Shown in pieces: positions 1,240-57,926 of a stretch of DNA of 64,000 bases. Position 1 is the first letter of the stretch, and the number at the start of each line of letters is the position of its first letter. The translations under genes were made by a program, and so were the position numbers. This DNA comes from Spirochaetia bacterium. Lineage in GTDB: Bacteria; Spirochaetota; Spirochaetia; UBA9216. The stretch is from positions 704,001-768,000 of the forward strand of contig OY776510.1 in NCBI GenBank assembly GCA_963675665.1, in the 5' to 3' direction. A model generated the notes under the pieces. It was not told the origin of the DNA. It saw nothing but the letters and a program-made list of their open reading frames with translations, and ran no database searches.

Positions 1240-1245
1240 GGCAGG

Positions 1246-4195: not shown

Positions 4196-4496
4196 TGCTG
4201 TTTCTCCTGATTGAATAAAATCCCTCAGTCTCTTCAGACTGAACAATCTTGAATCCATTGTTAAAAAGCTTGTCATACACATTTTTCTTCATAGTTCCGT
4301 TGTAATACAGCTTCTTACCACACTTGTCCCCGTATTTCTGGGCGGAAAGCAGCAACTGAATACCCGACAGATCGATTTTTGTAATGCCGGAAAGATCCAC
4401 AACCGGGTTATCTGCTTCTTTTATCAAGTTTTTAAGCTGATCCGCCGCAGATTTGGCATTTGCAATTGTAAAATCAGTTTCAAAGTCTTTTTTCAT
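4185..4496 (-). CDS. STAS-domain protein, first gene of the che operon
   Basis: VDLSGITKIDLSGIQLLLS STAS motif; position directly before cheA. Confidence 0.85.
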   Translation of the reverse strand: MKKDFETDFTIANAKSAADQLKNLIKEADNPVVDLSGITKIDLSGIQLLLSAQKYGDKCGKKLYYNGTMKKNVYDKLFNNGFKIVQSEETEGFYSIRRNSSEL

Positions 4497-34423: not shown

Positions 34424-34780
34424 TTAGTGATGGCTGCCATGATCGTGATCATGATGGTCACAGCCTACAGCCCCGCTCACCAGGGAACCCTTGCTCAATT
34501 CTTCAAGTACGGACTCGACTCCGCCGCTGATTGATCCCAATACCTTGATTCCGCGTATCTGCATGTTCTGAATAGCACCGGCGCCTATTCCGCCGACGAT
34601 TAAAGTTTCAACACCTTTTGAACCTAGAAAATCCGGAAGAACTGCGCAGTGTCCACCGGGATTATCCATGTACGCTATATCCGTTACTCCGTCCGCCTCT
34701 ACTGTTGCAAAGGTGAAGCCCTGACATTGACCAAAATGTTCCGACACCTGTCCGTTAAGTGTCGCTACTGCTACCTTCAT
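34424..34780 (-). CDS. NifB/NifX-family metal-cluster binding protein with His-rich tail
   Basis: VSEHFGQC, GGIGAGA, C-terminal CDHHDHDHGSHH. Confidence 0.88.
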   Translation of the reverse strand: MKVAVATLNGQVSEHFGQCQGFTFATVEADGVTDIAYMDNPGGHCAVLPDFLGSKGVETLIVGGIGAGAIQNMQIRGIKVLGSISGGVESVLEELSKGSLVSGAVGCDHHDHDHGSHH

Positions 34781-34786
34781 TCTTTT

Positions 34787-34944
34787 CTCCTATAAAAAGT
34801 TTCCGCATGGATGCGGGTTTTAAGAGGTGAAGTTGTAAAGCTAAACTGCGTTGCAGTTTAAACTGAGTTGCAGTTTAAACTGAGTTGCAGTTTTTGCTTT
34901 ACAACTTCAAAATGATAAAATTGCATGGAAGCAATTTTATCATT
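34787..34944. repeat. Three-hairpin intergenic element, copy 1, containing 3x17-bp tandem repeat (34842-34892)
   Basis: CCGC-ATGGAT-GCGG; GAAGTTGTAAAGC...GCTTTACAACTTC; TGATAAAATTGC-ATGGAA-GCAATTTTATCA. Confidence 0.85.
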
Positions 34945-35455
34945 CCTTCTGTAATTTTCTGCAGTCGGGACATAATCCGTGAAACTGCACAATATGTCTT
35001 TTTATCTCAAATCCGTGTTTCTCGGACAGCACAGACTCAACCTTTCGGTAAAGTTCGCGTTCATCCTCGATAAAATCCGTATACCTGATAACCTTGTAAC
35101 ATCGCTCGCATACCAGCTGGTGGTGATGCTCGGCACGCTGATCCTCGGCGGCAATATATCTCGCCTTTCCTTCTCCGAAATTATATCTGTTGACAATGCC
35201 CATCTCATCAAGGAGGACCAGCGTCCTGTATACCGTAGCCAGTCCTATTGCCGGGTAATCCTCCCTGATTATCGAATATATCTCCTCTGCGCTCAGATAG
35301 CCGTCGGCATTCTCGAGAACACCGGCAACAAGCTGCCGTGGAATTGTCATTCTCATTCCCCGGTTCCGAATACCGCCCTCAAGCTCCATACAGCAAGGCT
35401 TGTGTCTTCCGGGCCGGCCCTGAAACTGATCACGGCCTTCAGCAGGTCTATTCAT
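34940..35455 (-). CDS. fur: Fur-family transcriptional regulator
   Basis: RMTIPR, LSAEEIY, GLATVYRTL, HHHQLVCERC, CPDC; start codon uncertain. Confidence 0.88.
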   Translation of the reverse strand: MNRPAEGRDQFQGRPGRHKPCCMELEGGIRNRGMRMTIPRQLVAGVLENADGYLSAEEIYSIIREDYPAIGLATVYRTLVLLDEMGIVNRYNFGEGKARYIAAEDQRAEHHHQLVCERCYKVIRYTDFIEDERELYRKVESVLSEKHGFEIKRHIVQFHGLCPDCRKLQKE

Positions 35456-35474
35456 CAATGATTTCCACAAATTT

Positions 35475-35494
35475 GATATTGATAATCATTATCA
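35475..35494. promoter_or_regulatory. Fur box
   Basis: GATATTGATAATCATTATC matches the 19-bp Fur consensus at 18/19; perfect 7-1-7 TGATAAT-C-ATTATCA just downstream of a minus-strand TTGACT-N17-TATCTT promoter. Confidence 0.9.
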
Positions 35495-35539
35495 TTAAGA
35501 TAGCAAAAAAATAAGATCCAGTCAAGTTTTATTAATAAA

Positions 35540-35917
35540 TCAGCCGCACAGATGATCTACCGAAGAAATCAGGGAGTTTCTGCTGAAAGGTTTTATCAGC
35601 CAGTCAGCAGAAACATTCAAGCCGCTTAAATCGCCGAATTTTTTTTCAAGCTCAAGCCGCTTCTGTTCCGAAGCAAGAAACAGAATTGCTGTTTCTTCAT
35701 TACCGAACTCCCTGAGCTTATCCAGCACCTCTGTCTGGACAGCTGTTTTCATATCCATGTCTGCGATCAACAGTTTTACATAATGGTGATGAATATAATC
35801 TATCACCCAGCCTAACGACCCGGACGATATAAAATCCAGTTTGTTTTTGAAAACAAATTCGATATCGCCTATAAGCGCTTCCGAATCTGAAAATATTATT
35901 AACGGATTTTCAGTCAA
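35540..35917 (-). CDS. Single-domain response regulator receiver
   Basis: LLIADMDM, ILFLA, LIKPF; starts immediately after the sigma factor stop. Confidence 0.7.
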   Translation of the reverse strand: MTENPLIIFSDSEALIGDIEFVFKNKLDFISSGSLGWVIDYIHHHYVKLLIADMDMKTAVQTEVLDKLREFGNEETAILFLASEQKRLELEKKFGDLSGLNVSADWLIKPFSRNSLISSVDHLCG

Positions 35918-36886
35918 TTAGATAACACTCCTGAGCTCTTTCATCCTGGTTGACTCTCCAAGTTTGGCAATGGCTTTATTCTGGATTTGTCTTACCCTTT
36001 CTCTGGTAATATTAAACATCTGGCCTATGTCTTCAAGAGTTTGCGGTCCGTCCTTTGTCAGTCCGAATCGCAGTTTAATAATATCTCTTTCCCTGTCGGT
36101 AAGTTCATCAAGCGAAACTTCCACAATCTCTTTTATATTATTCTGGAAAAAGGCTTCGAACGGTTCGTAATACTCATCGCTTGCAATAAGTTCAGTCAAA
36201 TTTGTAGAATTTTCATCATCCACCGAAATATCCAGGGATGTTGTATCGCCCGTACTTGAAAGAATTGTATTAACCTTTTCTTTGCTCAGATCCATATAGC
36301 GTGCTATTTCGGAAGCTTTCGGTTCTCGCCCCATCGACTGGGTAAGCTCTCGGGTTGCCGAATAGCATTTTCGCGCGGTATTCAGAACATGGACCGGTAT
36401 GCGAATGGTCTTTCCCTTATCGGCTATTGATTTAATTATCGACTGCTGGATCCACCAGGTTCCGTAGGTTGAGAATTTACAGCCCTTACGGTAATCAAAC
36501 CGTTCAACAGCTTCAATAAGACCGATATTACCTTCATTTATGAGATCTATCAAATTGAGACCTCTATGCTGATATTTTTTCGCAATCGATACTACAAGTC
36601 GTAAATTACTTGTTACAAGCCTGTTCCGGAATTTATTAAGTTCCGCTTCATAATATAAACGTTTCTGCTCGTAATCCGGGGTGTCTATCTCTTGATACTG
36701 AACCTTCTGTTCAAGATCCTTCATCTGACTTTTCAGCGTATCCAGATCACGGGCTAATTCAAGCTCTTCCTTTCGCGACAGAAGGGGATATACCGAAATT
36801 TGTTTAAGATACAACGAAAGCGAATCATGTTCCCCCGCTGCAAAATCTTTTTCCGACTCTATTTCTTTATTCCATGCCTCTTTCAT
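35918..36886 (-). CDS. Group 1/2 sigma-70 factor lacking region 1.1 (RpoS-like)
   Basis: YLKQI..PLLS, NLRLVVSIAKKY, DLINEGNIGL, KFSTYGTWWI, TLEDIG..FNITRERVRQIQ. Confidence 0.92.
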   Translation of the reverse strand: MKEAWNKEIESEKDFAAGEHDSLSLYLKQISVYPLLSRKEELELARDLDTLKSQMKDLEQKVQYQEIDTPDYEQKRLYYEAELNKFRNRLVTSNLRLVVSIAKKYQHRGLNLIDLINEGNIGLIEAVERFDYRKGCKFSTYGTWWIQQSIIKSIADKGKTIRIPVHVLNTARKCYSATRELTQSMGREPKASEIARYMDLSKEKVNTILSSTGDTTSLDISVDDENSTNLTELIASDEYYEPFEAFFQNNIKEIVEVSLDELTDRERDIIKLRFGLTKDGPQTLEDIGQMFNITRERVRQIQNKAIAKLGESTRMKELRSVI

Positions 36887-36954
36887 GGTTTGAATAATGC
36901 CACGAAAAAACCACAAAAAAAATCGGGAAAGCTTGAGACATTTGGTAAGAAGTC

Positions 36955-36988
36955 CCCCTATCCAACCATAGGGGAATCCCCTATGGTT
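36955..36988. other. Palindrome AACCATAGGGG-AAT-CCCCTATGGTT plus an extra CCCCTAT box, between lgt and the sigma gene
   Basis: Perfect 11-bp inverted repeat; terminator or operator. Confidence 0.55.
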
Positions 36989-37011
36989 TTTGTCATATAT
37001 AAAGAATCCAA

Positions 37012-38046
37012 TTACTTGATTTTCTTTCTTTTCTTTCTGATAGACTTGTTGCCCCGTTTTACAGAGACAGTTTCAATATTATCATCGGTATAATCTTCTT
37101 CCGTCAATGTTCCGGCTGTTTGTCTTTTTCTGAAAAAATACAAGGCGAATCCTCCCGCCATCATTAAAGCACAAAGAATCTGCCCCGTAGAAAAATTAAG
37201 ATATGAGCTTAATAGCGCCGGTGTTTCTCCGGTGTCTCCGAATTGAAATATAAATCCCATATCCCGGTCGGGTTCCCGAAAATACTCAATGATAAACCGA
37301 ACCGCTCCGTATCCGATAAGGTAAAAGCTTATAACTGCACCATGAAATTTTTTCCTGTTCCTGATAATAAACCACAGGAAAAGCCACAATACAATTCCTT
37401 CAAAAAAAGCCTCGTACAATTGCGACGGATGCCTGGGCAGATTTATAAACCCGCTTTGCGGCAGGTTTATGCCGGCAGCATTTGCAACCTCCTGTACCCA
37501 GCCTGCGGAAACCGGAAACCTCTCGGCATTAGGAAAAACTATTCCCCACGGCCGCGTTGTGACACGCCCCCAAAGTTCGCCATTAATGAAGTTTCCGAGA
37601 CGGCCGAAGGTATAACCCAGAGGAATTCCCGCGGCGACTATATCAGCAAAAAGAAACCAGTTTTTCTTTTTAATTCGACAGAAAATTATTGTCGCTACCA
37701 CCGCACCGATTACTCCGCCGTGGTAACTCATTCCCTGAAGACCGGTAAATCTCCCGCCCCGGAACGGCCAGAAGATCATCCACGGCCTGGAAATGTAATA
37801 GTGTGTCGGATCATAAATGGTCGTGGCAAGCAGTCTGGCGCCGAGAAGCAGTCCGATTATACCCCAAAAGAAACAGTTAAGGATATCATCCTCACTGAAT
37901 CCTGTTTTTAGCCCGCGGGCCTGCTTCATCATTAAAAAATATGCTATTGAAAAAGCTATCAGATACATCAGTCCGTACCATCTGACAGGCAACCCAGGGA
38001 TTATCTCCGGCCTCAACCACTGGGGGAAATTAATATACGCAAGCAT
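37012..38046 (-). CDS. lgt: Prolipoprotein diacylglyceryl transferase
   Basis: VRWYGLMY, GMSYHGG, GRLGNFINGELWGR, HPSQLYE, EYFREPD. Confidence 0.96.
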   Translation of the reverse strand: MLAYINFPQWLRPEIIPGLPVRWYGLMYLIAFSIAYFLMMKQARGLKTGFSEDDILNCFFWGIIGLLLGARLLATTIYDPTHYYISRPWMIFWPFRGGRFTGLQGMSYHGGVIGAVVATIIFCRIKKKNWFLFADIVAAGIPLGYTFGRLGNFINGELWGRVTTRPWGIVFPNAERFPVSAGWVQEVANAAGINLPQSGFINLPRHPSQLYEAFFEGIVLWLFLWFIIRNRKKFHGAVISFYLIGYGAVRFIIEYFREPDRDMGFIFQFGDTGETPALLSSYLNFSTGQILCALMMAGGFALYFFRKRQTAGTLTEEDYTDDNIETVSVKRGNKSIRKKRKKIK

Positions 38047-38050
38047 CATT

Positions 38051-38178
38051 CCTCCTATAAAAGAGTCCCGCATGGATGCGGGTTATTACGGGAAGAAGTT
38101 TGTGAAACAAATCTGCTTTGCAGATTTGTTTTTCAAACTTCAAGATAAAATTGAACATGGATGTTCAATTTTATCATT
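38051..38178. repeat. Three-hairpin intergenic element, copy 2
   Basis: CCCGC-ATGGAT-GCGGG; GAAGTTTG...CTGC-TTT-GCAG...CAAACTTC; GATAAAATTGAAC-ATGGAT-GTTCAATTTTATC. Confidence 0.85.
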
Positions 38179-38182
38179 CCTC

Positions 38183-41143
38183 CTATTCGGTTTTCCCGGA
38201 ATTATCCAACGGGTGTTTTTCAAGCACACCCGTTTCCTGATTAAAAATAATTTTCACTGCTTTTTCCTGTTTTGTTATTTCAAGACTTCTTCCGTGGCTC
38301 TCAAATAAAACCCCCGGAAAAACATCGCCCCTAATCACAATATCACCGGGATAATGTTGTTCAAAACGTTCTTTAAGAGCAAAAACCCGCATACTGCGTT
38401 TTCCCATTATCTTCATCAGCTTGACTTTCTCCATACGAAGATTCGTCAGGTTCTTTTTTTCACCGTCTTTCTCAGCCTGTCTCATCTCGGGCTCTATCTT
38501 TACCAGGCGGGTTTTAATCTTATTAATTTCATTTTCCTCCGTCTCGATCCGGTCCGAAACAAGATAATCCTGACCAAAAGAGACTTCGGTACGGCTGCCG
38601 GAAAGCGACCCTATATTCTGGGCTTCAATCCCTTCCCGGGCCTGAATTCTGCCGCCGACAAGATAACCTTTCTCAGACAACAGTTTTAGTTTGCCGTTGC
38701 ATTTTACCTTGCATCCGAATATGGCATTCTTAACCGTGATATTACCGACAGCCAGCAGTGTGGCCCGTTCGGCAAATGCAAGCTGAATCGAGTCCTTGGC
38801 TCTCAGGATAGCTTTGCCGCCGCCCTTGATTCCCTGTGCTACGGCAATTGATTTTTCCGATGAAAGCAGGGACATCTCGGAATTCATTCCGATGGCTATA
38901 TTTCCGCCGGATATTACAAAAAACCCGTTTTTTACATTTCCTTTTACGTTAACGTCACCGCCGAATTTGATGTTTCCTGTATTAAAATCGACATCGCCCT
39001 TGATGAACAGGCTTTCCTGCACCTCAAGCCTGTTGTTTTCAAAAAGAACCCTGCCTGATTTGTCCGCGATCAAAAAAGTGTCGCCGTTTTCGTCTTTTTC
39101 TTCCCTGATATTGGCGCCTACATCAATATTCAACGGCGTAAGCTTTTTGGCAGCTATGGTTTTACCGCAGACATCCCAACCGTCTTCCGATTCACCTTCC
39201 ACTACGCGGATTTCAGCAATGATATCTCCTGCTTTTACGGATGTCATCTTGTTCTGTTTGCGGTAATTCGCTTTCCCGCTCTTGTCTATTGTAACAGCTT
39301 CACCGCCGGCAAGTTCTATCAGCCATTTCAATTTTGCCTCACCGGCATTCTTCGGAGCCTTCCCCATGGCAATCAGTGCCCCGGAAACACTTTCTCCGGA
39401 TCTCGCTTTCTCTACTGCCGATCTTACAGCATCGGCATTCAGTCCGTTTTTTATTCCGGCTTCATCGATAAGGCGGTTTGCTTCCTCCAGCGACGTCGGC
39501 GCACCCGTTCCCACAGCTGGTTCAGCCGATATTACGGCGGTCATTTTGTCATCCGAAAGTTTGATTTTAAAAGACGAGTCGGCATGCTCGCGTATCCGGA
39601 AGACCTTTTCCCCGTCTCTGTCAAAACGTTCAAGCAGACCTTTTGTCACCGATATTATTATTCCGCCTGCAATTTTTACGTTTTCCAGCGCCTTGTAAGA
39701 GTCCTGTTCTTCCGCATCAGGCTCAATACCGGCTCCGTATACGTCCGTACCCTTTTTACCTTCGTTTACCGGTAAAGACGCAATCTGCTGTTCCGCCTGC
39801 ACAAGAGCAAGTGCTGATGCTTCTTCGGGAGGATACTCAACGGCAGATTCAATTGCGGAAAGGTAATCTTCGGAGACGCCGGGTATACGCTTTTTAATTT
39901 CATCTGCAGTCGAATCGGGAAGAAATTCCAGCTCATAAATCAGCTCGCCTGCCTCTCCGCTTTCAGCTGCAGTTCCCTCGCAAAGAGGAATTACCGTATC
40001 AACTTCCGGTCCGCGGTTAAATTCAAGGATGAGCTCCTGAATCTTCTTCAGATCCATCTGTTTAAGACCGCTCGCCTTTATTGCCGCTCCTACCTGCTTC
40101 AGTACAAGAGGCTTGCCGTTTCCCCGGCCTTTATGCATTACAAGATCAGCCTTGAGTTTGTCCTCGCTGATTTTAAACTCAAAAAAGCCGTCGTCATCCA
40201 GGCTGATCACCGCTCTTTCAAGGACCTTGCCTGTCTCTATCGCCGTATTGATTATTTCATTCAGCCGAACTTCGGAAACAAGCGTTTCAACCTCACAGCC
40301 GAGCATTTTTGCCCTCTCAAAGATTTCCGCCGGATCCGGGGGGCTTGATTCGGGACCGCCCGGGTTGAATTTCAGAAGGCAGGTATTTTTATCTTTCGAA
40401 AGCTCAAGAGACCAGTCGTGGGTTCTAAACGGAAAAACCTCCGCCCAATTGCTGCCTCGGCGAAGAATTCCGGGCTCTGTAGCAATAAGAGCAGCGCCCC
40501 GGGATTCTATTCCTCTTCCGAGATAAAACTCATCCTCATCCGTTAACGGAGATACGGGCTTTCCATAAACATCCTTGCCCGGCTTGCCGGTCTGCCCCGG
40601 TTTTATATCAGCTATTTTCTCTCCCGTCTCCACCAGGCCGGCGGCAATAACATCCGGAATTATTTCAACCCGGATCCTGTTTTCACGTTTTACGTTTTCT
40701 ACAACCGTTTCAGTCTTTTCTTTCCCGAAAGGCAGCAGGCCTTTCTTTTTTACGACTTTTTCCTGTTTTATCTTTTCAATTTCTGTTTTATATATTTCCG
40801 GAGTCGGCGTATTTTCAAGAACGCGGAGTATATCATCCTTCAGTTCATCGGGAATCACAGCTTCTGCCCATTTGTACTCTTCCGGTTCCGACGGTTCGGC
40901 AGGGTCACCTTCGGCTATGGTAATATTAAGTTCTTCGGAAGACAGAAAGAGCGATTCCAGATCTTTTTCAAATTTCGATCTGTCGAACCCGTAAACAATC
41001 TGCTTTTCAGAAACGAGTTGAGTAAACGCCTGAATATCCCATTCAGATCCTTCTTCATCAGGAATAAAATGCAGGACCGCAAGCATACCTTCATCATCAG
41101 CATCAATATTGGCCCGACCTTTTATTTTCTTTTCTTCCGCCAT
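38183..41143 (-). CDS. FapA/DUF342 family protein with internally repeated N-terminal modules
   Basis: GDVDFNTGNIKFGGDVNVKGNV beta-helix; repeated xSxDKxxA and G.DVYG modules; coiled-coil C-terminus. Confidence 0.85.
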   Translation of the reverse strand: MAEEKKIKGRANIDADDEGMLAVLHFIPDEEGSEWDIQAFTQLVSEKQIVYGFDRSKFEKDLESLFLSSEELNITIAEGDPAEPSEPEEYKWAEAVIPDELKDDILRVLENTPTPEIYKTEIEKIKQEKVVKKKGLLPFGKEKTETVVENVKRENRIRVEIIPDVIAAGLVETGEKIADIKPGQTGKPGKDVYGKPVSPLTDEDEFYLGRGIESRGAALIATEPGILRRGSNWAEVFPFRTHDWSLELSKDKNTCLLKFNPGGPESSPPDPAEIFERAKMLGCEVETLVSEVRLNEIINTAIETGKVLERAVISLDDDGFFEFKISEDKLKADLVMHKGRGNGKPLVLKQVGAAIKASGLKQMDLKKIQELILEFNRGPEVDTVIPLCEGTAAESGEAGELIYELEFLPDSTADEIKKRIPGVSEDYLSAIESAVEYPPEEASALALVQAEQQIASLPVNEGKKGTDVYGAGIEPDAEEQDSYKALENVKIAGGIIISVTKGLLERFDRDGEKVFRIREHADSSFKIKLSDDKMTAVISAEPAVGTGAPTSLEEANRLIDEAGIKNGLNADAVRSAVEKARSGESVSGALIAMGKAPKNAGEAKLKWLIELAGGEAVTIDKSGKANYRKQNKMTSVKAGDIIAEIRVVEGESEDGWDVCGKTIAAKKLTPLNIDVGANIREEKDENGDTFLIADKSGRVLFENNRLEVQESLFIKGDVDFNTGNIKFGGDVNVKGNVKNGFFVISGGNIAIGMNSEMSLLSSEKSIAVAQGIKGGGKAILRAKDSIQLAFAERATLLAVGNITVKNAIFGCKVKCNGKLKLLSEKGYLVGGRIQAREGIEAQNIGSLSGSRTEVSFGQDYLVSDRIETEENEINKIKTRLVKIEPEMRQAEKDGEKKNLTNLRMEKVKLMKIMGKRSMRVFALKERFEQHYPGDIVIRGDVFPGVLFESHGRSLEITKQEKAVKIIFNQETGVLEKHPLDNSGKTE

Positions 41144-41145
41144 AA

Positions 41146-42288
41146 TTAAATTTTATAACCCTGCTCAGAAGCCTTTATGAGCTTGCTTTTCAGAAGATTA
41201 TTCTCCTTGCGTAAAACCGATATCTCATATTGCTGGCTCTTTACAGTTTCTATCAATTCTCCCTTTGTCAGAGCCCCGCTATGCAGCAGGCTTTCAAGAT
41301 CCTGCTGTTTATAGTCAAAATCAAGTTCCGCCTCCATTTCGGCATTCTGATATGTTTCCTCAAGATTCTGTATATCAAGTATGGACTGATCCTCCGAACT
41401 TTTTTGAATAATTCTGTCGGCTATCCGGTAAACAGCCATGGAGATGACAGATTCAGGTTTATATTTGATTATAGGAAGCCGGGAGTTAAGGGCAACATCC
41501 TGAAGATGATCCCTGTAGATTACCCCGAGATATTCCATATCAACCCCGAGGTACTGTTCACATGATCTTTTTATTTTTTCAGCTTTAACCGAATCCTTTG
41601 GATCCTCAATCATGTTCATCACAAGCATCGGCGAAAAAATTTCCATTTTTTTCATAAATGAAGCATGTTTGACGGAATCCAGGCTCTCAAGTTTATCGAG
41701 CAGCCCCGGAATATAAATCCTCTGCAGCCCGTCACCGTCGGCTGAAATATCATCCAGATATAAACGCGCGGGACTTTTTCCTGTAAAGCTTGTTGTTATC
41801 ATCCTGAAAACCACATTCTTCAAAAAAAGATAAGCATTAAGCGTCGCCGTTAAAGCCGGCGCGGTCACAATTATCCCTGTTGACGACAACAGAAAAAAAT
41901 CGAGGGTATTAAATGAGGTTCCGGCCCCGAGATCAACAACAACAAAATCGGCTTCAAGCGATTTAATATTGCTGATCAGGGATCGTTTCCGGGCCGAGGA
42001 AATATTGGCAAGTCCGGGAATTTCCGCATCTCCGGGAATAAATTTCATTCCGGGGTATTCCGATTCAATTATGATGTCTTTGAAATCCATATCGGTCCTG
42101 GTCAGCCATGTTCCGATTCCGGACCCGTTTTTACCGCTGCCCAGCATCATGTGAAGGTTTGAACCGCCGAGGTCCAGATCTGCCAATACTACATCTTTTC
42201 CAGCCTGAGACAGGGCTATTGAAAGGTTAACAGCAAGCAGCGATTTGCCTACGCCGCCTTTGCCGCCTGCAATTGGAATAATATGCAT
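41146..42288 (-). CDS. MinD/FlhG-like P-loop ATPase with C-terminal coiled coil
   Basis: GGKGGVGKS, DLDLGGSNLH, DLGAG. Confidence 0.85.
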   Translation of the reverse strand: MHIIPIAGGKGGVGKSLLAVNLSIALSQAGKDVVLADLDLGGSNLHMMLGSGKNGSGIGTWLTRTDMDFKDIIIESEYPGMKFIPGDAEIPGLANISSARKRSLISNIKSLEADFVVVDLGAGTSFNTLDFFLLSSTGIIVTAPALTATLNAYLFLKNVVFRMITTSFTGKSPARLYLDDISADGDGLQRIYIPGLLDKLESLDSVKHASFMKKMEIFSPMLVMNMIEDPKDSVKAEKIKRSCEQYLGVDMEYLGVIYRDHLQDVALNSRLPIIKYKPESVISMAVYRIADRIIQKSSEDQSILDIQNLEETYQNAEMEAELDFDYKQQDLESLLHSGALTKGELIETVKSQQYEISVLRKENNLLKSKLIKASEQGYKI

Positions 42289-42398
42289 TTAAACCTCCGA
42301 ACGAATGAAAGTATATCATGAAGCCCTAATCACGGAAAGACACTTCAATACTTGATGATCAACGGCAGTAATATTATTATTTATAACAGAGGTAAAAG

Positions 42399-43841
42399 AT
42401 GAAAAATAAAGAACGAATAATCTGGCTTGGAGTTACGGTTGTACTGGCTGCCGCCTTTATTTTCACAACTGCAAGCCCTATGAGGGCTTCCACTTCAGGA
42501 ACAGAAAGCGAAAGATATATCGAAAACCTTTCAGTACTGTTCGATTTCATACAGGATAACTATGTTGACGAGGTAAGCCCGCAGCAGCTCTATGAAGGCG
42601 CTGCCGTGGGTTTGTTTGAAAGTCTGAATGACCCGTATTCAGTATACCTTACCCCTGAAGACATGGAAGACTTTTCAGATACGACAACAGGCAGTTTCGG
42701 CGGAGTAGGTATGTTTATCTCAAAACAGGGGGGCGAACGACCTGAATATTCCTCCGACATGACCTTCCGTGAAAGATATTTTGATTTTGTAGAGGTCATT
42801 TCTCCCATTGAAGGAACACCGGCATACAAAGCAGGAATTTCCGCAGGCGATTTTATTTTAACAATAAACGGCGAATCAGCCGAAGGGTTTTCAAGCGACG
42901 AAGCAGCCGATATTCTGAGGGGCGTTCCGGGAACAGAGGTGAGCCTGACTATCGTCCGGCGCGGAGGAATTACAAAAACCTATACGCTGAAGAGAGCGGT
43001 GATTGAAGTTCCCACGGTAAAATACGCAATGATAGACAACGAAACGGCATATCTTAAAATAGTTAGATGGACGCCTTACACCGAGGAAAGCGTCCGGGAA
43101 GCTGCCGAGTTTTTCAAAAAAAATGAATACCAGTCGCTGATTATTGATGTGCGCGGCAATCCCGGCGGGCTTTTGTCCAGCGTTGTCGATACTGCCGACC
43201 TTTTTCTTGATAAGGGAACAATCGTCAGCACCAAAGACAGGAACATGGTCACCCTCGAAGATTTCAGGGCCTCAAGAAAGCTTTCAATACCCAAAGACAT
43301 TCCAATTATTCTCCTGACGGACAAGGGTTCGGCTTCAGCATCCGAAATTCTCGCCGGGGCGCTCAAGGACACAGGCAGGGCCTATCTCATAGGCGATACG
43401 ACCTTCGGCAAGGGTTCGGTCCAGCAAATCCGGGGATTCGGCGACAGCGGCTTCAAACTGACCATTTCACGCTACTATACACCTGATGATTACAACATCG
43501 ATAAAATAGGAATTGAACCGCATCTGAAATTAACCGAGGACGAGTTAAACGACGAAGAACTTGAAAGTCTTGCCCGGCTTGTTGAAAACAATACAATCGC
43601 CGTTTTTGTAAACGATAACCCTGTGGAACAAAAAGATCTTACAGACAGTTTTGTCGCCGAACTTAAAAACGACGGCTGTATTCTTGAAGACAGGCTGATC
43701 CGCAAACTGATCAGGGAAGAATACAACCGAAGCCTGAATGATCCTCCGGTTTATGATCTCGAATACGACAAGGTTCTGAACTATTCGCTTAACCTGTTTA
43801 AAAGTGGAAACTACGAAGCCGCGTTGAAAGCGGTTAATTAG
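42399..43841 (+). CDS. ctpA: Carboxyl-terminal processing protease (S41)
   Basis: DPYS, PDZ, DVRGNPGGLL, SASASEI, TFGKGSVQ. Confidence 0.93.
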   Translation: MKNKERIIWLGVTVVLAAAFIFTTASPMRASTSGTESERYIENLSVLFDFIQDNYVDEVSPQQLYEGAAVGLFESLNDPYSVYLTPEDMEDFSDTTTGSFGGVGMFISKQGGERPEYSSDMTFRERYFDFVEVISPIEGTPAYKAGISAGDFILTINGESAEGFSSDEAADILRGVPGTEVSLTIVRRGGITKTYTLKRAVIEVPTVKYAMIDNETAYLKIVRWTPYTEESVREAAEFFKKNEYQSLIIDVRGNPGGLLSSVVDTADLFLDKGTIVSTKDRNMVTLEDFRASRKLSIPKDIPIILLTDKGSASASEILAGALKDTGRAYLIGDTTFGKGSVQQIRGFGDSGFKLTISRYYTPDDYNIDKIGIEPHLKLTEDELNDEELESLARLVENNTIAVFVNDNPVEQKDLTDSFVAELKNDGCILEDRLIRKLIREEYNRSLNDPPVYDLEYDKVLNYSLNLFKSGNYEAALKAVN

Positions 43842-43855
43842 GTCGTACAGCTGCA

Positions 43856-44623
43856 ATGAGACAGTTTGTTTTACCGCCCGATTACGACGGTTCCGGAAGT
43901 ATCCGTATTTCCGGCGGAGACGCAAAATATATCCTCAAGGTGCTAAGGCTTAAAGAGGGCGAGGCCTTCCCGGCAGTTGACCGTACCGGAAAACGATTCA
44001 GGCTGCAGATTTCACAGACCGGCGGAGGATTCTTCACAGCTTCGGTACAACCGTCTGAAGCCGGGGCCCCGCCGGATACACAGACAGTTTTAATGCAGTG
44101 CCTTCCCAAAGGAAAAAAACTCGAACTTATTGTCAGGCAGGCCGTTGAAGCCGGCGTTTCCATGATAATCCCCGTCGAAAGCGCCCATTCTATTGCACGA
44201 ATCAACAATGAACGTGAAGGAAAGAAAACCGATCGCCTTTCCAAAATTGCCGAAGAAGCAGCCCAGCAGAGCGGCAACAGGGGAGTTCCCGAGATAACGC
44301 CTCCCGTCACAATCAGCAAACTGCCGGCCCTGCTTTCAGAAAAGGGAATAAGCGGATTAAAACTTTTTTTTCATCAGGAAAGGCTTGAAAAAGGAAGCCT
44401 TCACGGGTACCTTAAAGGCGATTGTAATTCAGTCTGCCTGCTGATTGGTCCTGAGGGAGGTTTATCAGCAGATGAAACAGATTTTCTGCTTGCATCCGGT
44501 TTTTATCCGGTTTATCTTGGAGAAAACGTCCTTAGAACTGAAACCGCGGCAATTTATGCTTTAGGTGCGGTCAATACAATTCTGATGGAGAAAAATGAGT
44601 GGAAAACAGACATCCGGGAATAA
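43856..44623 (+). CDS. rsmE: 16S rRNA m3U1498 methyltransferase
   Basis: VLRLK.GE, EAAQQS, IGPEGGLS, LGENVLRTETA. Confidence 0.94.
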   Translation: MRQFVLPPDYDGSGSIRISGGDAKYILKVLRLKEGEAFPAVDRTGKRFRLQISQTGGGFFTASVQPSEAGAPPDTQTVLMQCLPKGKKLELIVRQAVEAGVSMIIPVESAHSIARINNEREGKKTDRLSKIAEEAAQQSGNRGVPEITPPVTISKLPALLSEKGISGLKLFFHQERLEKGSLHGYLKGDCNSVCLLIGPEGGLSADETDFLLASGFYPVYLGENVLRTETAAIYALGAVNTILMEKNEWKTDIRE

Positions 44624-45351
44624 AGAGAATAAACTTTTTAAAGGTTCCTGTAGATATTCTTCCCGAAGATCAGATTGAAAACGTATTTAAAACTCTTTCT
44701 GAAGACGGAAAGAAACATCAGGTTGTTCTTATTAATTTCTTCGATCTGATGAAAGCAAGACGAAGTAAAGAATTCATGAAAACGCTCAGGGAATCAAGCC
44801 TTGTTATTCCGACCGCAGGAAGTCTTTTGCGCGGAATAAAATTCCTGAAGAAGGATCCGGCGTTCAGATACCGCCCGTTCGATTTTGTAATCAGAATCCT
44901 GGGCCTGATGGAACAGCAGCAAAAAACGCTTTATCTCATCGGCGGCAGACAGCATTCGCTTCAAACCGTATTCAACAATATGAGGATTTCATTCCCTGGA
45001 CTGAATATTGTAGGACGCTATACGGGGTATTATCCTGCCCAGGTTGAAGAAAATATACTCGTCGCAATAAAAAAAGCGTCGCCGTCTTTTCTGCTGGCCG
45101 GAGACGGACTGAAAGGCGGGGACAAATGGCTGAACAACCGCAAAGAAGCGTTTAACCCGGGAATATATCTCTACTGCAGCGAGTGTTTTGCAATCTTCAG
45201 CGGCAAGAAGAAAAAAGGCGCCAGAAAAAACTGGGAGAACGGCACGGAAATAATACCGGAAGTATTTAAAAACCCCTTAAAGATATTCAGGGTATTCATA
45301 AGGTTTTATTATGTTCTGCTTCTTCTGATTTACAGGATCTCGGGAAAATAG
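44599..45351 (+). CDS. WecB/TagA/CpsF glycosyltransferase family protein (divergent)
   Basis: LYLIGG, FPGLNIVGRYTGY, IKKASPSFLLAG. Confidence 0.75.
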   Translation: MENRHPGIKRINFLKVPVDILPEDQIENVFKTLSEDGKKHQVVLINFFDLMKARRSKEFMKTLRESSLVIPTAGSLLRGIKFLKKDPAFRYRPFDFVIRILGLMEQQQKTLYLIGGRQHSLQTVFNNMRISFPGLNIVGRYTGYYPAQVEENILVAIKKASPSFLLAGDGLKGGDKWLNNRKEAFNPGIYLYCSECFAIFSGKKKKGARKNWENGTEIIPEVFKNPLKIFRVFIRFYYVLLLLIYRISGK

Positions 45352-45365
45352 TAACTGAACATCTG

Positions 45366-45827
45366 TTAATCATAAAGTCTGAGATACTCGTAGGCTTCAC
45401 TCAATTTTGAGCTGATGTTGCGGGTTATTAATCTGCCGTAAAGCATTCTAATTACCGGGAAAAAGCTGATTGCGCCGATAAAATCGGTTATAAACCCGGG
45501 AAGTAGCAGAAGCAGCCCGCCGAACAGGGCGCCGGCCAGCTGAATCATGTCTTTTTCCGAATAAACCCCCTCGGAGACTCCCTCGCGGATTAATTTTATT
45601 CGTGAGGATATTTCATTATAACTTAAAAACAGTCCGATTATCCCTGTTATAGCTGCCACGGCAAGTGTAAAGTATACGCCCAGGAACCCGCTGATAAACT
45701 GTATTATGAAAATCTCCCCGAGAACAACCAAAGACAAGCCCAATATTACAAAGGCCGCTTTCAGGACAAATCCCGGGTCAAGAAACTTTAATAAAAACCT
45801 TGTATTCATTGACGATAACAATATCAT
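45366..45827 (-). CDS. fxsA: FxsA family membrane protein
   Basis: GGLLLLLPGFITDFIG motif; ATGA overlap with upstream gene. Confidence 0.85.
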   Translation of the reverse strand: MILLSSMNTRFLLKFLDPGFVLKAAFVILGLSLVVLGEIFIIQFISGFLGVYFTLAVAAITGIIGLFLSYNEISSRIKLIREGVSEGVYSEKDMIQLAGALFGGLLLLLPGFITDFIGAISFFPVIRMLYGRLITRNISSKLSEAYEYLRLYD

Positions 45828-46507
45828 AAATCGGGATCAATCGTCCAGCCGTGGCCGGAAGCTGTCCGGATAAGACCGTTGAATCCTCCGGTACCTGCTT
45901 CGTTACCTTTTTGAACAATGCATATAATCTTCTGTCTGAGCCTGGAAATATGCATATCAACTGCCCTGGAAGCATCCGCCGTTTCGAGGCCGAGAAGGGT
46001 GGAAATCATCGATCTGTTCATAAAACATCCGCGGTTACGCAAAAGGGCCGTAAGTATTACCGTCTCAGATCTCGACAGATCTTCCGTTTCGACAGGTTCT
46101 TCAGCCAAAAAATACACGATTTTTCTGCCGGGGGATAATACAATGACGCCTTCTCCGGCGGCAGCTGCCAGAGGTTTCCTGCACCGGACGGCCCTTGCGA
46201 AAAACTCTGCAGGTGTCCATGGTTCACAAAGATAATCTTCGCTGCCGGCAGCAAGAGTCAACGCCATGGTTTCAGCCGGGCCGTATGCAAGGACAGGGGG
46301 AAGAAGAAGCTTTGCAGGGACTTTGGATTCAAAATATTCAGGAAGACATTCCGCAGGCATTACACAGAGGTCGCTTTCCAGGTTATGATTATTTTTTTCC
46401 GCAAAAAAAAGCTGTACGTCAGGAATCCGCTTCCTGTACAGCTTTAATTTTTGTCTGGTTATACTGTCGCATCCGCAAACGGAAATACGGCATTCCGGAA
46501 AAGGCAC
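45824..46507 (-). CDS. OmpR-like winged-helix regulator with degenerate receiver
   Basis: SRAVDMHISRLRQKI, IRTASGHGW; receiver lacks the canonical Asp and Lys. Confidence 0.75.
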   Translation of the reverse strand: MPFPECRISVCGCDSITRQKLKLYRKRIPDVQLFFAEKNNHNLESDLCVMPAECLPEYFESKVPAKLLLPPVLAYGPAETMALTLAAGSEDYLCEPWTPAEFFARAVRCRKPLAAAAGEGVIVLSPGRKIVYFLAEEPVETEDLSRSETVILTALLRNRGCFMNRSMISTLLGLETADASRAVDMHISRLRQKIICIVQKGNEAGTGGFNGLIRTASGHGWTIDPDL

Positions 46508-46524
46508 GAATTCTGCCCGTTAAA

Positions 46525-47076
46525 TCAGCCCAGAAAAACCTGACCCGAATTATCTATTGCAAGAATCGTTTTGCATTCAGAACATCTGAAGCGCCCGGAT
46601 TTTGTTGCTTTCAGTTTCTTTGAACATATCGGACACTGAAAAATCTTTGGAAACACGTCCGAACTTTTTGTTCCGCCGCTGGCCCCGAAAAACTCTACCG
46701 CTTCGGTCAAATTGTCCTTGATGTTGAAAAACTGCGAAAATCCGAGAAGCTGAAATACCTCATAAACCTTCGGCTGGATTTCCAGAAGAACCAGATCGCC
46801 GCCTCTTGGTCTTACAGCTTTGAGAAAAGCTGTAAATGAACCGATACCTGTACTCGATACGTAATTCAATCCGCTGCAGTTAAAAATCAGCTTGATGAAA
46901 CCGGCTTCGATAGCCTTGGTTACTCTTTTCTGGAAAAAGTTTGAATTGTATGTATCAATGTACCCGGTTAAAAATAACACCAGGCATCCTTCTACGCCTT
47001 CAACCGCCTGTAGCTTAATTCGGAGACTGTCGTCTTTTTCCTCGTCAAATCCTGTTACTATATCGTTATTACTCAT
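46525..47076 (-). CDS. STAS anti-sigma antagonist with C-terminal zinc ribbon
   Basis: GYIDTYNS, LNYVSSTGIG, CPIC...CSEC; GAGGT RBS. Confidence 0.9.
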   Translation of the reverse strand: MSNNDIVTGFDEEKDDSLRIKLQAVEGVEGCLVLFLTGYIDTYNSNFFQKRVTKAIEAGFIKLIFNCSGLNYVSSTGIGSFTAFLKAVRPRGGDLVLLEIQPKVYEVFQLLGFSQFFNIKDNLTEAVEFFGASGGTKSSDVFPKIFQCPICSKKLKATKSGRFRCSECKTILAIDNSGQVFLG

Positions 47077-47251
47077 TGTACCTCAACCTGCTCTTAGTTT
47101 AACAGCCAAATAACAGTTTTTCAATATAGATTATAAATTAATACTATATGATCGGCCTAAATTTCAATTAAATTAATAGCATGTTCCTAAAAAAGGTCAT
47201 AATAACATATAATTCTTGACCTGAGGCATTATAAATCTTAAAATTACATTC

Positions 47252-47734
47252 ATGAGCAAGATAGTTAAAAAGTTGTTTGCAATTCTGCTGATAACTGCCA
47301 CGGCCGTATGCCTTTATGCCCAACCCGCGGAATCGTCCGCACCGGACATTGATTTATCGTTGACTGTTATTTCACTTGCAAAAGCAGTAGAGACCGGAAG
47401 GGGTATTCCAGCCGCGGGAACCCCGGTAATAATCAACGGGACCGTAATTGAACGCACCCTGATTGACGGGGAGAAAGAAACCTTCGCAGGCGAGTTAATA
47501 ATTGCAAGCGGAGAATGGGTAAGTTCTGCCGAAGTCGAAGTATCCAGGTGCGCCGTCCTTCTTAACGGGCCCAGGTTTGCAGACACAATTCCGGCAAGAC
47601 GATCCAGAACTGTCAACCCGAAAGAAATAGAGACCAATTCCGAATTAATTGTTTACGGAGTTTATCTCGGATATGCGGATACCGACGACGGTCCGCTTGC
47701 TGTTTTACAGGCGTACGACGTAAGAAAACTCTGA
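47252..47734 (+). CDS. Hypothetical exported protein
   Basis: Signal peptide; TTGACC-N17-TAAAAT promoter 7 nt before ATG. Confidence 0.7.
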   Translation: MSKIVKKLFAILLITATAVCLYAQPAESSAPDIDLSLTVISLAKAVETGRGIPAAGTPVIINGTVIERTLIDGEKETFAGELIIASGEWVSSAEVEVSRCAVLLNGPRFADTIPARRSRTVNPKEIETNSELIVYGVYLGYADTDDGPLAVLQAYDVRKL

Positions 47735-47743
47735 TCTTTCCGT

Positions 47744-48874
47744 TCAAAATCCGTACCTGATCGAATCAGCCGTCAAAAATCCCGACGGAGATGAATAAAC
47801 AGCCCGCCTGAAAACGTTTCTCAATTCACGAACGTTTCCGGGCCAGTTGTGTTCATAAAGTCTTTCAATAAACGAGTCTGTCATCTCATACTGCTTATTC
47901 GGCCGCTCGCTGCTTAACTGGGAACTGAAATGCATCAGCAGTTCGGGAATGTCGTCCATACGCTCACGCAGCGGCGGCAGCTGTATTCTGAACTCGTCTA
48001 TACGGAACAGAAGATCCTGTCTGAAACGTCCGGCAAGGGTTTCTTTCGGCAGGTTTTTATTTGTTGCCGATATCAGACGGGCATCTATTCTCTTTATACG
48101 GTTTGATCCGAGCTTTCTTACTTCTCCGGACTCAAGGACCCTCAGCAGCTCCGCCTGTGCCGAAGGTTCAATGTCTGCAATTTCATCAAGAAACAGGGTG
48201 CCGCCGTCTGCAAATTCGAAATGCCCGGCTCTGTTTACCGCCCCGGTATAAGCCCCCTGAGAAGACCCGAAAAACTCGGAAACGCTCAGCGCCGCGGGAA
48301 TGGCCCCCGCATTTACTGCATGGAAAGTATTATACTTTCGATCCGAAAAATCATGAAGCAGCCGGGCGATTATTTCCTTTCCGGTTCCGCTTTCCCCGGT
48401 AACGAGAACCGGTCCCGGCGCATTACACAATCCAAGGATCTCTTCCTTTACCCGTATCATTTTATCGGAAGACCCGACAAGTGCCGACATCCGGCTGTTA
48501 AGCCTGTAGCGTTCTACAGCGGAATATGTTTTCAAACGATCAGCGGCATATTGTTCGATGATTTCATTAAGCCCGCACGGATCAGAAGCCAATTCCAGAA
48601 AACAGGCGTCCTTTTCCGGAATTTTATAATCTGCCCGGTTTGTCTCCGCTTTTTTGTAAAAAATAACCAGTTTGAACGAATAACGGGAAATTTTTCTGCA
48701 TTCTTCCGCAGAAACAGACGGACCGGTAAGTATAATATCAACAGTAGCTTCTTCCAGTATTGAGGACGCTTCCGTAAAATCAGGAACTGAAACAACCGTG
48801 CAAAAATCGGGGATTTTTCCCTGAATAAGAATTCGGTTTGTGAGGATTTTCTCAACGAATAATATTTTCACCAT
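47744..48874 (-). CDS. Sigma54-dependent activator (bEBP) without C-terminal HTH
   Basis: GESGTGKE, GAYTGA, FLDEI, FRQDLLFRI, WPGNVREL; ends shortly after the AAA+ domain. Confidence 0.88.
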   Translation of the reverse strand: MVKILFVEKILTNRILIQGKIPDFCTVVSVPDFTEASSILEEATVDIILTGPSVSAEECRKISRYSFKLVIFYKKAETNRADYKIPEKDACFLELASDPCGLNEIIEQYAADRLKTYSAVERYRLNSRMSALVGSSDKMIRVKEEILGLCNAPGPVLVTGESGTGKEIIARLLHDFSDRKYNTFHAVNAGAIPAALSVSEFFGSSQGAYTGAVNRAGHFEFADGGTLFLDEIADIEPSAQAELLRVLESGEVRKLGSNRIKRIDARLISATNKNLPKETLAGRFRQDLLFRIDEFRIQLPPLRERMDDIPELLMHFSSQLSSERPNKQYEMTDSFIERLYEHNWPGNVRELRNVFRRAVYSSPSGFLTADSIRYGF

Positions 48875-48951
48875 TTTGTTATTGCTCTTCTTAAATAAAA
48901 TCTTTTTTACATCTTAAATTCTGTTTTTATAAAATAATTTTACCCTGTAAT

Positions 48952-48990
48952 AAAAAAGCGGGCAAGAAAAAAATTTTCCGCCCGCTTCTT
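48952..48990 (-). terminator. Intrinsic terminator of the ECF-antisigma-ybjQ unit
   Basis: AAGCGGGC/GCCCGCTT stem with A/T tracts. Confidence 0.7.
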
Positions 48991-49008
48991 TAGTTTAATA
49001 TTACTTGT

Positions 49009-49338
49009 TTATTCGAATTCAACAGCTGTTCCGTAAGCCAGAAACTCGGCGGCGCCCTGCATCATGCTGGTTGTTGTAAAGCGAAGCCCCACTACAGCAT
49101 CCGCCCCCAGGGATTCGGCATCTTCCATCAGCCTGTCAATCGCCTGTTCCCGGGACTCGGCCATCATCTTTGTATAATCGACGATTTCGCCGCCTACCAT
49201 GTTTTTAAATCCGGCCATAATATCCTTTCCCAGATGTCTCGCCCTGATCGTATTACCGCGCGCCAGTCCAAGCACCTTTTTTATATTTTTTCCGGGCACT
49301 GTTTCCGTTGTCACGATAATCATTCCATTATCACTCAT
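49009..49338 (-). CDS. YbjQ/UPF0145 family protein
   Basis: IVTTETVPG, GGEI..YT, GADAVVGLRF, AYGTAV. Confidence 0.92.
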   Translation of the reverse strand: MSDNGMIIVTTETVPGKNIKKVLGLARGNTIRARHLGKDIMAGFKNMVGGEIVDYTKMMAESREQAIDRLMEDAESLGADAVVGLRFTTTSMMQGAAEFLAYGTAVEFE

Positions 49339-49769
49339 TTCATTACCCCCTTGTATTTGTCGGTTTTGCTTTCCCTGATTCTGTCCGACAAAGCGGTTAT
49401 AAATAAAACTATAACAGAAACAACAGCAGCTGTAACTATAAATTTCACAAACATCGCTTCCCCGGAATCGGTGAACAGCGTGTAGAGCGCATAGCCGGCA
49501 AGCATCAGCCAGGAGACAATCATCAGGATAAAACCGAAACCTCCGGCAAACCGCCTTCGTCTGCTTCGGTAAAGAGTTTCAAACCATTCTTCTTCCGGAG
49601 CTGCTGTTTTAATGCCCGCAAGCTTTTTCCGCAACTTAAGCAGTCCGATATATTCATCCCTGCAGCGATAGCAGGATTCAAGATGCTCCATCAACGGCGC
49701 AATTTTTTCCTCTTCAAGTTCATCATCTATAAGCATCTGACAATTTATTTTTGCTTCTTCACAATTCAT
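49335..49769 (-). CDS. zf-HC2 membrane anti-sigma factor
   Basis: C...HLESCYRC ZAS motif, two TM segments; GGAGG RBS. Confidence 0.9.
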   Translation of the reverse strand: MNCEEAKINCQMLIDDELEEEKIAPLMEHLESCYRCRDEYIGLLKLRKKLAGIKTAAPEEEWFETLYRSRRRRFAGGFGFILMIVSWLMLAGYALYTLFTDSGEAMFVKFIVTAAVVSVIVLFITALSDRIRESKTDKYKGVMK

Positions 49770-49774
49770 GATTA

Positions 49775-49885
49775 CCTCCAATAAAAACTCTTGCCATGGA
49801 CGGCAAGTTATTGAGAGCGAAGTTTGAGAAGCTTTGCTTTACAAACTTCAAAATGATAAAAACACATGGATGTAATTTTATCATT
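49775..49885. repeat. Three-hairpin intergenic element, copy 3
   Basis: CTTGCC-ATGGAC-GGCAAG; GAAGTTTGAGAAGC-TTT-GCTTTACAAACTTC; TGATAAAAACAC-ATGGAT-GTAATTTTATCA. Confidence 0.85.
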
Positions 49886-50384
49886 CACCCTCCAGTCTGT
49901 TTTTCAGCATTTTCCGCGCATTGAATAATCTTGACATGACTGTGCCTCTCGGAATATCGAGAATTTCAGCCATTTCATCATATGAACATTCATCATAATG
50001 CTTCAGTATGATAATCTCCCTGAATTTCTCGGGCAAACTTAATACGGCAGCCTTTATTTCCTCTCTCGACTCACGCTGCACCACCTCGTTCTCAACAGAA
50101 TCCTCTCCCGGATGCAGTTCCGGAAATTCGAGGCCCGCTTCGGACCCGGATTTTCTTTTCCAGCGGTTGATACACAAATTTTTTGTTATTCTGAACAGCC
50201 ATGGAAATACGGGACGGGCGGGATCAATATTTTTAAAGTTTTTCCAGGCCCTCAGAAAAACCTCCTGTGTGAGATCTGCAGCCTCTTCACTGCTGCCGAG
50301 ATACCTGAAGGCTGTATAGTATACACGCTTGTCATAGGCTTTAAACATCGCGGAAAATGCTTCGCTTTCTTTCATACTATTCAT
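49881..50384 (-). CDS. ECF sigma-70 factor (SigW/RpoE-like)
   Basis: DLTQEVFLRAW, PWLFRITKNLCIN, SYDEMAEIL.IPRGTVMSRL. Confidence 0.92.
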   Translation of the reverse strand: MNSMKESEAFSAMFKAYDKRVYYTAFRYLGSSEEAADLTQEVFLRAWKNFKNIDPARPVFPWLFRITKNLCINRWKRKSGSEAGLEFPELHPGEDSVENEVVQRESREEIKAAVLSLPEKFREIIILKHYDECSYDEMAEILDIPRGTVMSRLFNARKMLKNRLEGE

Positions 50385-57816: not shown

Positions 57817-57878
57817 GGTCCCTGGTCCTCAGGAAAGAATTTGGTAAGAATCGGACTTTGTCCGATTCTTACCATTTT
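57806..57878 (+). other. Double hairpin overlapping the lysC stop (13-bp and 15-bp perfect stems)
   Basis: TTCTTTCCTGAGG-TCCCTGGT-CCTCAGGAAAGAA then TGGTAAGAATCGGAC-TTT-GTCCGATTCTTACCA followed by TTTT. Confidence 0.75.
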
Positions 57879-57926
57879 AAAACTACTAAATTTTGATACA
57901 GACTGATTTGCGAAGGATAAGGATAT

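Follow-up and report, generated by a model that had tools for sequence, protein, structure and literature searches.

The 64,000-nucleotide stretch analysed here (the window; Spirochaetia bacterium, assembly GCA_963675665.1, contig OY776510.1, positions 704,001 to 768,000) carries three copies of a non-coding element built of three consecutive hairpins, which belongs to the TD-2 RNA family (Rfam RF03162). The copies lie at 34787-34949 (copy 1), 38052-38183 (copy 2) and 49775-49890 (copy 3), and the genes next to all three are encoded on the minus strand and are functionally unrelated. Copy 1 separates a Fur-family regulator gene located upstream (34943-35455, minus strand; Pfam PF01475, E = 8e-29) from a downstream gene for a Nitro_FeMo-Co-domain protein (34427-34780, minus strand; PF02579). 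Copy 2 is placed between a FapA (DUF342) gene (38186-41143, minus strand; PF03961 and PF20250) and lgt (37015-38049, minus strand; PF01790), and copy 3 between a gene for an extracytoplasmic function (ECF) sigma factor (49884-50384, minus strand; PF04542 and PF08281) and a putative anti-sigma gene (49338-49769, minus strand), which has no Pfam match and owes its presumed role to its position and to an N-terminal Cys/His pattern.

Read on the plus strand, the element starts with CTCC(T/A)ATAAAA, continues with a short G+C-rich hairpin 1, a hairpin 2 formed by a long GAAGTT...AACTTC stem of variable length and a hairpin 3 with a GATAAAA/TTTTATC stem of 13-14 bp, and ends with TCATTC. Because of register shifts, alignment of the raw copies by MAFFT and RNAalifold yielded hairpin 3 alone and was replaced by our own covariance model, built from two well-aligned related copies with the structure written by hand. 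This model finds exactly three copies in the window, with default filters and with filters off alike, confirming both the places and the three-hairpin layout proposed in the initial annotation. In copy 1 (77.2 bits with our model), whose TD-2 strand is plus and whose operon mRNA strand is minus, the hairpins occupy 34802-34817 (loop CATGGATG on the plus strand), 34829-34908 and 34911-34944 (14 bp, loop CATGGAAG on the plus strand); in copy 2 (50 bits) they occupy 38067-38082 (loop CATGGATG), 38095-38141 and 38144-38175 (loop CATGGATG); and in copy 3 (75.9 bits) 49790-49807 (stem CTTGCC/GGCAAG, loop CATGGACG), 49819-49849 and 49852-49885 (loop CATGGATG). The loops of hairpins 1 and 3 read CATGGANG in six cases out of six, and the earlier observation that all of them keep ATGGA thus holds. 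Taken by itself, the octamer CATGGANG shows no enrichment over the window (10 occurrences against 7.2 expected, six of the ten being element loops), and it is the architecture, not the octamer word, that exceeds chance. The apex of hairpin 2 is occupied in copy 1 by a 17-nt mini-hairpin in tandem triplicate (34842-34893, 3.1 units) and in copy 2 by one related unit (38105-38131); this part of the element seems to grow through tandem duplication of a self-pairing unit. Between the genes for aspartokinase and threonine synthase our model has a weak match (57838-57902, 16.6 bits), which consists of two ordinary hairpins with a T-run after the second, looks like a plain terminator and was rejected as a copy.

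Relatives were collected with a gapped pattern derived from the conserved right half of the element (CATGGA required), which was scanned over genome contigs and returned 38 loci, the window copies not being among them. Nine of these belong to three metagenome-assembled genomes of spirochaetes (Spirochaeta sp. UBA9216, Spirochaetales bacterium bin_125 and Treponema sp.), while the other 29 are scattered over unrelated phyla in about the number expected by chance, as roughly estimated from the pattern length, and none of them has a match of our model at the pattern site. The model alone added one more copy (L005:6317-6428, loop CACGGAAG, hairpin 1 stem CCACC/GGTGG). Pattern and model together yielded ten further copies in three uncultured spirochaete genomes, making 13 together with those of the window; the counts cover the window and the related loci, that is three copies in 64 kb and ten in 122 kb, all in spirochaete hosts. 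The neighbours differ at each of the 13 copies and are unrelated in function, and Pfam assignment of 25 flanking proteins gave no common theme, several flanking pairs being natural operon partners (transaldolase/RpiB, FabH/FabG, NicO/CooC-like, and genes within BMC and ExbBD clusters). Comparison by blastn found no synteny between the window and the fetched loci, and within the four genomes seen no two copies occupy orthologous loci. The element is thus a dispersed multi-copy family.

Compensatory change in the stems, noted originally for the window copies, extends to the whole set. In an alignment of 12 copies fitted to the model, a circumstance with which the pairing statistics have to be read, standard pairs make up 98.2% of cells, and both sides have changed in 16 of the 29 pairs; none of 500 shuffles reaches the observed pairing and covariation, and no slid register comes close. 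Hairpin 1 exists in four fully compensated stem versions, of which CCCGC, CTTGCC and (C)CTGCC each occur in two or three genomes and CCACC only in copy L005b, and the length of the middle hairpin ranges from 22 to 80 nt. The proposal that G-T wobbles favour the plus strand is roughly reproduced for the window copies and does not generalize. G-U pairs are nearly absent from the modelled stems: the core hairpins of the 13 copies hold eight of them on the plus (TD-2) strand against three A-C oppositions that would be G-U on the minus strand, and minimum free energy is in favour of plus for four copies and of minus for eight, with one tie. Neither energy nor G-U pairs, consequently, could serve to choose a strand. 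The pairing is strand-symmetric, the data do not tell which strand, if either, acts as RNA, and palindromes acting at the DNA level fit equally well.

A scan of the whole window against Rfam gave one match above the curated threshold, copy 2, as RF03162 TD-2 RNA on the plus strand (38066-38179; 49.2 bits against 48.7). Under a permissive threshold the TD-2 model also detected copies 3 and 1, likewise on the plus strand and in the three-hairpin register, with 44.6 and 34.3 bits, respectively; copy 1 is misaligned to the model because its middle hairpin carries the 17-nt unit 3.1 times. The curated threshold is reached by five of the 13 copies, namely copy 2 and four of the ten copies outside the window (51.7-54.8 bits). 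The three copies therefore belong to the TD-2 family as new members in environmental Spirochaetales and are not a new kind of system; such a match to an already described family is one of the outcomes that the initial annotation itself had listed as refuting it. TD-2 was described in 2007 in Treponema denticola only, with 36 instances alongside 28 of the TD-1 motif, both showing covariation and stems of variable length, and the sections of that report dealing with the motifs assign TD-2 no function (Weinberg et al., 2007, PMC1950547). In seven cases a TD-1 instance overlaps the reverse complement of a TD-2 motif, and TD-1 lies mostly upstream of genes, unlike TD-2, 17 of whose 36 copies are outside a 5' configuration (PMC1950547). 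A full-text literature search for the TD-1 and TD-2 motif names found no paper beyond this one. The Rfam entry for TD-2 is of the type sRNA gene, and its strand is that of the matches obtained here.

The likeness to TD-2 comprises three disjoint hairpins in the same order, the loop motifs AUGGAU and ACGGAU, a GAGUUU/AAACUC-type middle stem of variable length, multiple copies and spirochaete hosts. Unlike TD-2 of T. denticola, where the stem of hairpin 3 is of the GCUGAAAA type, the copies described here have a GATAAAA-type stem, and their hosts are uncultured Spirochaetales, Spirochaeta and one Treponema genome instead of T. denticola only. TD-1, which we take to be in the same Rfam clan as TD-2, gave no match to the three window copies on either strand at E up to 10, with the reservation that overlap pruning within a clan may hide a match on the same strand. 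In its position the element nevertheless resembles TD-1, whose usual site is directly upstream of genes and whose overlap with TD-2 reverse complements (PMC1950547) is the arrangement seen here.

The most regular property of the set is its relation to genes. The TD-2 strand is antisense to the abutting gene in 13 of 13 copies (two-sided binomial p ~2e-4), and every copy lies directly upstream of a gene start, so that orientation relative to genes is uniform, whereas the published TD-2 instances differ in this respect and the motif's description in PMC1950547, as far as its relevant sections go, ties it to no stop codons, ribosome-binding sites or insertion. On the sense strand the element opens with (T/C)AG GAG GAA TGA TAA AA, continues with hairpins 3, 2 and 1, and closes with TTTATAGGAG, whose GGAG stands 2-8 nt before the downstream start codon in all 13 copies; the CTCC end noted above is the reverse complement of this GGAG. 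In the window, GGAG at 34787-34790 (minus strand) precedes the ATG of the Nitro_FeMo-Co-domain gene (34778-34780), and GGAGG at 49775-49779 (minus strand) that of the putative anti-sigma gene (49767-49769). At the opposite end, the stop codon of the upstream gene falls within or abuts the 5' terminal motif in eight of 13 copies, seven of the eight in one frame: it is the TGA of the motif in copies 1 and 3 and in L035, a TAG before the motif in copy 2, L005b, L030 and L036, and a TGA three bases into the motif in L016. In four other copies the stop is situated 8-50 nt upstream of the element, and L023 has no upstream open reading frame (ORF). Thus the TGA of the Fur-family gene (34940-34942, minus strand) lies within the motif GAA TGA TAA of copy 1 and that of the ECF sigma-factor gene (49881-49883, minus strand) within the motif of copy 3, while the TAG of the FapA gene (38183-38185, minus strand) abuts the GGAGGAATGAT end of copy 2, where the 14-nt string ATAGGAGGAATGAT is located that appears again at the other end before lgt. 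The earlier remark that one end includes the downstream GGAG and the other the upstream TGA in copies 1 and 3 is borne out. The element is thus bounded by a stop codon in its 5' motif and by a Shine-Dalgarno sequence at its 3' end.

Such a position invites the interpretation of the element as a cis-acting module of the operon mRNA, which would process, stabilize or uncouple the message or provide a binding platform tuning the downstream gene, in the manner of the "5' regulatory configuration" of TD-1. Location of 13 copies out of 13 in the transcribed strand immediately before a start codon, strong conservation of structure and loops and the TD-1 overlaps mentioned above are all consistent with it, yet the neighbouring genes have no function in common, G-U pairs show no strand bias and the minus strand of the window copies gives no TD-1 match. 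Sequestration of the ribosome-binding site by an anti-Shine-Dalgarno linker is not supported: the median probability of the Shine-Dalgarno sequence being unpaired is 0.32 for the 13 genes behind the element against 0.27 for controls (25 of the 47 window genes, those in which a Shine-Dalgarno sequence could be placed; Mann-Whitney p = 0.39), that is, it is no more sequestered than elsewhere. Hairpin 1 of the sense strand is weakly terminator-like in copies 1 and 2, where it reaches only a loose consensus for an intrinsic terminator, and in most copies the T-run sits 3-5 nt off the stem. Regulation in cis is accordingly a possible but rather doubtful explanation. A conserved small ORF starting from the ATG of the element was also discarded, such frames spanning 3-151 codons without conservation; the longest concerns L005:9589-10047 (minus strand), where the motif ATG of copy L005a is in frame with a downstream DUF3795 gene, forming a possible 151-codon fusion ORF across the whole element.

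For copies 1 and 3, comparison with orthologous proteins shows insertion, if indirectly. For the sigma factor of copy 3, 18 of 38 matches were aligned (163-170 aa, identity of at least 66%; P0003, P0004, P0014, P0015, P0022 and weaker or partial matches were left out). Among the 17 non-identical homologues, 15 (66-82% identity) run three or four residues past the ...LEGE of the window protein, ten ending in K(H/N)EL and five in other tails of 3-4 residues, and two are shorter; an end of the window type, ...RLEGE, is found only in a twin with 98% identity. Just after copy 3 the minus strand encodes, at 49759-49776, GNHEL followed by a stop, a putative relic of the ancestral sigma-factor C-terminus, which overlaps the start of the anti-sigma gene ATGAATTGTGA. 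For the Fur-family protein of copy 1 the alignment included 17 of the best 19 of 474 matches under the E-value cut-off (the cluster of the window protein itself and two short entries were left out). Within this set none of 17 homologues ends in LQKE as the window protein does (...CRKLQKE); ten possess a tail such as ETEDEGSSSNT and seven are short, ending for instance in EK or EKNE. Here again a candidate relic, GEKNEGSSSDT followed by a stop (34755-34790, minus strand), is readable just after the element, overlapping GGAG and the start of the Nitro_FeMo-Co-domain gene. To judge from these tails and relics, copies 1 and 3 are insertions that split ancestral overlapping gene pairs. At both sites the element would have removed the tail of the upstream protein, ended its frame anew within GAA TGA TAA, and either preserved or contributed GGAG before the downstream start. 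Since relatives at 82-91% protein identity do not have the change, the insertions are probably recent on the evolutionary scale. For regulation in cis, two apparently recent insertions together with the lack of any copy kept at an orthologous locus are a further difficulty.

We therefore regard it as rather probable that TD-2 in these genomes is a small (~100-165 bp) non-autonomous inserted DNA element which is tolerated at operon junctions and is mainly neutral or mildly uncoupling. On this proposal the element would insert shortly before a gene start, in the region of the ribosome-binding site, and always in one orientation. Where insertion cuts off the natural end of the upstream gene, the 5' terminal motif would close its frame; three self-contained hairpins would follow, and through the TTTATAGGAG end a Shine-Dalgarno sequence would come to stand 2-8 nt ahead of the ATG of the downstream gene. 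As the element itself supplies stop and Shine-Dalgarno sequence, both neighbours would stay expressed and overlapping pairs would become separate cistrons. The effect on the host may be mainly neutral, or may consist in mild uncoupling or stabilization of the operon mRNA. Its Shine-Dalgarno-like direct ends may result from a strong preference for ribosome-binding-site regions as targets, or may mediate short-homology recombination with them, and either would explain both position and fixed orientation. Mobilization might be carried out by an enzyme encoded elsewhere than in the sequences analysed here or by recombination at the direct repeats that form its Shine-Dalgarno-like ends, and the conserved loops of the hairpins may serve as recognition sites for mobilization or for another sequence-specific binder. 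In terms of the initial annotation, the part that saw a junction element similar to REP repeats or miniature inverted-repeat transposable elements (MITE) stands as far as dispersal, absence of shared orthologous sites and the apparent insertion of copies 1 and 3 are concerned; of its other part, an antisense CsrA-binding RNA, only the loop motif is retained.

Several facts weigh against an inserted element. The recommended check for a RAYT or HUH transposase came out negative: among 57 window proteins, 101 proteins from the 122 kb of related loci and 25 flanking proteins, Pfam assignment disclosed no transposase, RAYT or Y1 (HUH) enzyme; ATAAAA/TTTTAT is the only convincing terminal inverted repeat; and there is no site-specific target duplication, similarity between ends being 7.0 within a copy and 6.4 across copies (permutation p = 0.12). 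Moreover, insertion is deduced indirectly, from protein ends and relics, no empty site having been seen at the DNA level, and the FapA C-termini are too variable to inform on copy 2. Finally, conserved loops and fully compensated stems imply constraint beyond what a purely neutral insertion needs. As a separate observation, L023:4027-5463 comprises a fragmented insertion sequence, its DUF772 and DDE_Tnp_1_2 domains being split over different short ORFs, ~5 kb from an element copy and with no sign of a link to it.

The ends of the element share a direct repeat, (A)TAGGAG(GAATGAT), which reaches lengths of 14 nt (copy 2), 13 nt (L036) and 9 nt (L005b). Target duplication was considered for copy 2 and L036 and dismissed, the repeats being explained by the family-wide end motif; the ends of one copy are no more alike than those of different copies, and the direct repeat is therefore a family feature and not a site-specific duplication. 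The same short core, (A)TAGGAG, at start and end might also recall orphan recombination sites of an integron (attC-like) or of another site-specific system, given that chromosomal integrons of Treponema hold dozens of structured attC sites (PMC3607928). This explanation appears scarcely credible: the copies do not form arrays, the window and related loci encode no integrase nearby, hairpin 2 has the order GTT...AAC and not AAC...GTT, and eight representative T. denticola attC sites (63-68 bp, AAC...GTT core) have, on comparison by eye, no motif in common with either the element or the consensus of TD-2, so identity with the published attC sequences was rejected.

Among known repeats, REP/BIME, ERIC, Correia (NEMIS) and BOX elements are likewise short non-coding multi-copy palindromes, co-transcribed with operons, modular with variable sub-repeats and sporadic among relatives. 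They are placed downstream of stops or in either orientation and supply no pair of stop and Shine-Dalgarno sequence, and here neither RAYT nor TA duplication was seen, nor an inverted terminal repeat beyond ATAAAA/TTTTAT. Also similar in placement are MIRU (mycobacterial interspersed repetitive units), intercistronic operon repeats oriented with the genes, the ends of which overlap the upstream stop and the region of the downstream start; unlike the present three hairpins without a conserved ORF, MIRU are tandem units with small ORFs.

The loops themselves require separate consideration, since they fit the CsrA/RsmE hairpin-loop consensus. An antisense small RNA transcribed from the TD-2 strand could bind CsrA by its two CANGGANG loops, the copies then constituting a dispersed CsrA sponge or recruiter. 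All 13 hairpin 3 loops and nine of the 13 hairpin 1 loops conform to C-A-N-G-G-A-N-G, matching CANGGANG and varying only at N, although nine of the former were selected by the pattern (CATGGA) and the three of the window defined it, which leaves one independent case, and hairpin 1 lacks the motif in L005a, L025, L036 and L028. The T. denticola consensus in Rfam has the same loop pattern, the filing of TD-2 as an sRNA gene concerns the GGA strand, and T. denticola has csrA in a fliW-csrA cluster (PMC9481697). No csrA is present among ORFs of at least 55 aa in the window or of at least 70 aa in the related loci, and no fliW gene was found in the window. A consensus scan, which is weak evidence, located neither a promoter nor a terminator on the plus strand of copies 1 and 2; the plus-strand sequence flanking the element is antisense to coding regions and varies from copy to copy; neither energy nor G-U pairs prefer the plus strand, and it would be left without explanation why the element adjoins stop and start codons so exactly. 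CsrB/RsmZ-type RNAs share with the element GGA in hairpin loops and a C-G closing pair, but here there are only two such loops, found antisense within operons, with no promoter or terminator of their own detected. The CsrA interpretation fits the loop motif only and remains speculation, which we hold to be improbable.

A still bolder combination can be imagined, in which TD-2 would be a mobile intercistronic cassette homing to Shine-Dalgarno sequences, its ends guiding it into gene starts, where it would split overlapping genes and bring its own stop and ribosome-binding site, and in which the CANGGANG loops would at the same time truly be bound by CsrA, as part of a transcript that is either antisense or due to read-through. 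We consider this very improbable. To our knowledge, spirochaetes use only FliW as a CsrA antagonist, and if the combined reading were true, they would carry a dispersed RNA-based CsrA buffer.

The rest of the window provides some context. A cheB-cheR-cheA cluster (157-4282) and flhG-like, fapA and sigma genes (35921-42288) indicate a motility-rich spirochaete chromosome. The segment 62001-64000 has a G+C content of 0.34 against 0.41-0.49 elsewhere, and its small ORFs at 62584-63830 are without Pfam match, so that this end may represent foreign or non-coding DNA. A direct repeat of 110 nt with 71% identity (57403-57512 and 57646-57755) within the aspartokinase gene corresponds to the two ACT domains of its product.

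For the TD-2 family, what is new here is its presence in environmental Spirochaetales, the locking of its orientation to gene starts, the termini with stop and Shine-Dalgarno sequence and, as the protein ends suggest, insertion into overlapping gene pairs. For annotators it would follow that protein C-termini adjoining TD-2 elements are element-derived. The presumably split overlaps of the Fur-family gene with the gene next to it and of the sigma factor with its putative anti-sigma partner offer test cases, for example for whether the sigma/anti-sigma ratio changes. TD-2 has been in Rfam since 2007 as a candidate small RNA of one species, and the view of it would shift from "sRNA gene" towards "operon-tolerant insertion element".

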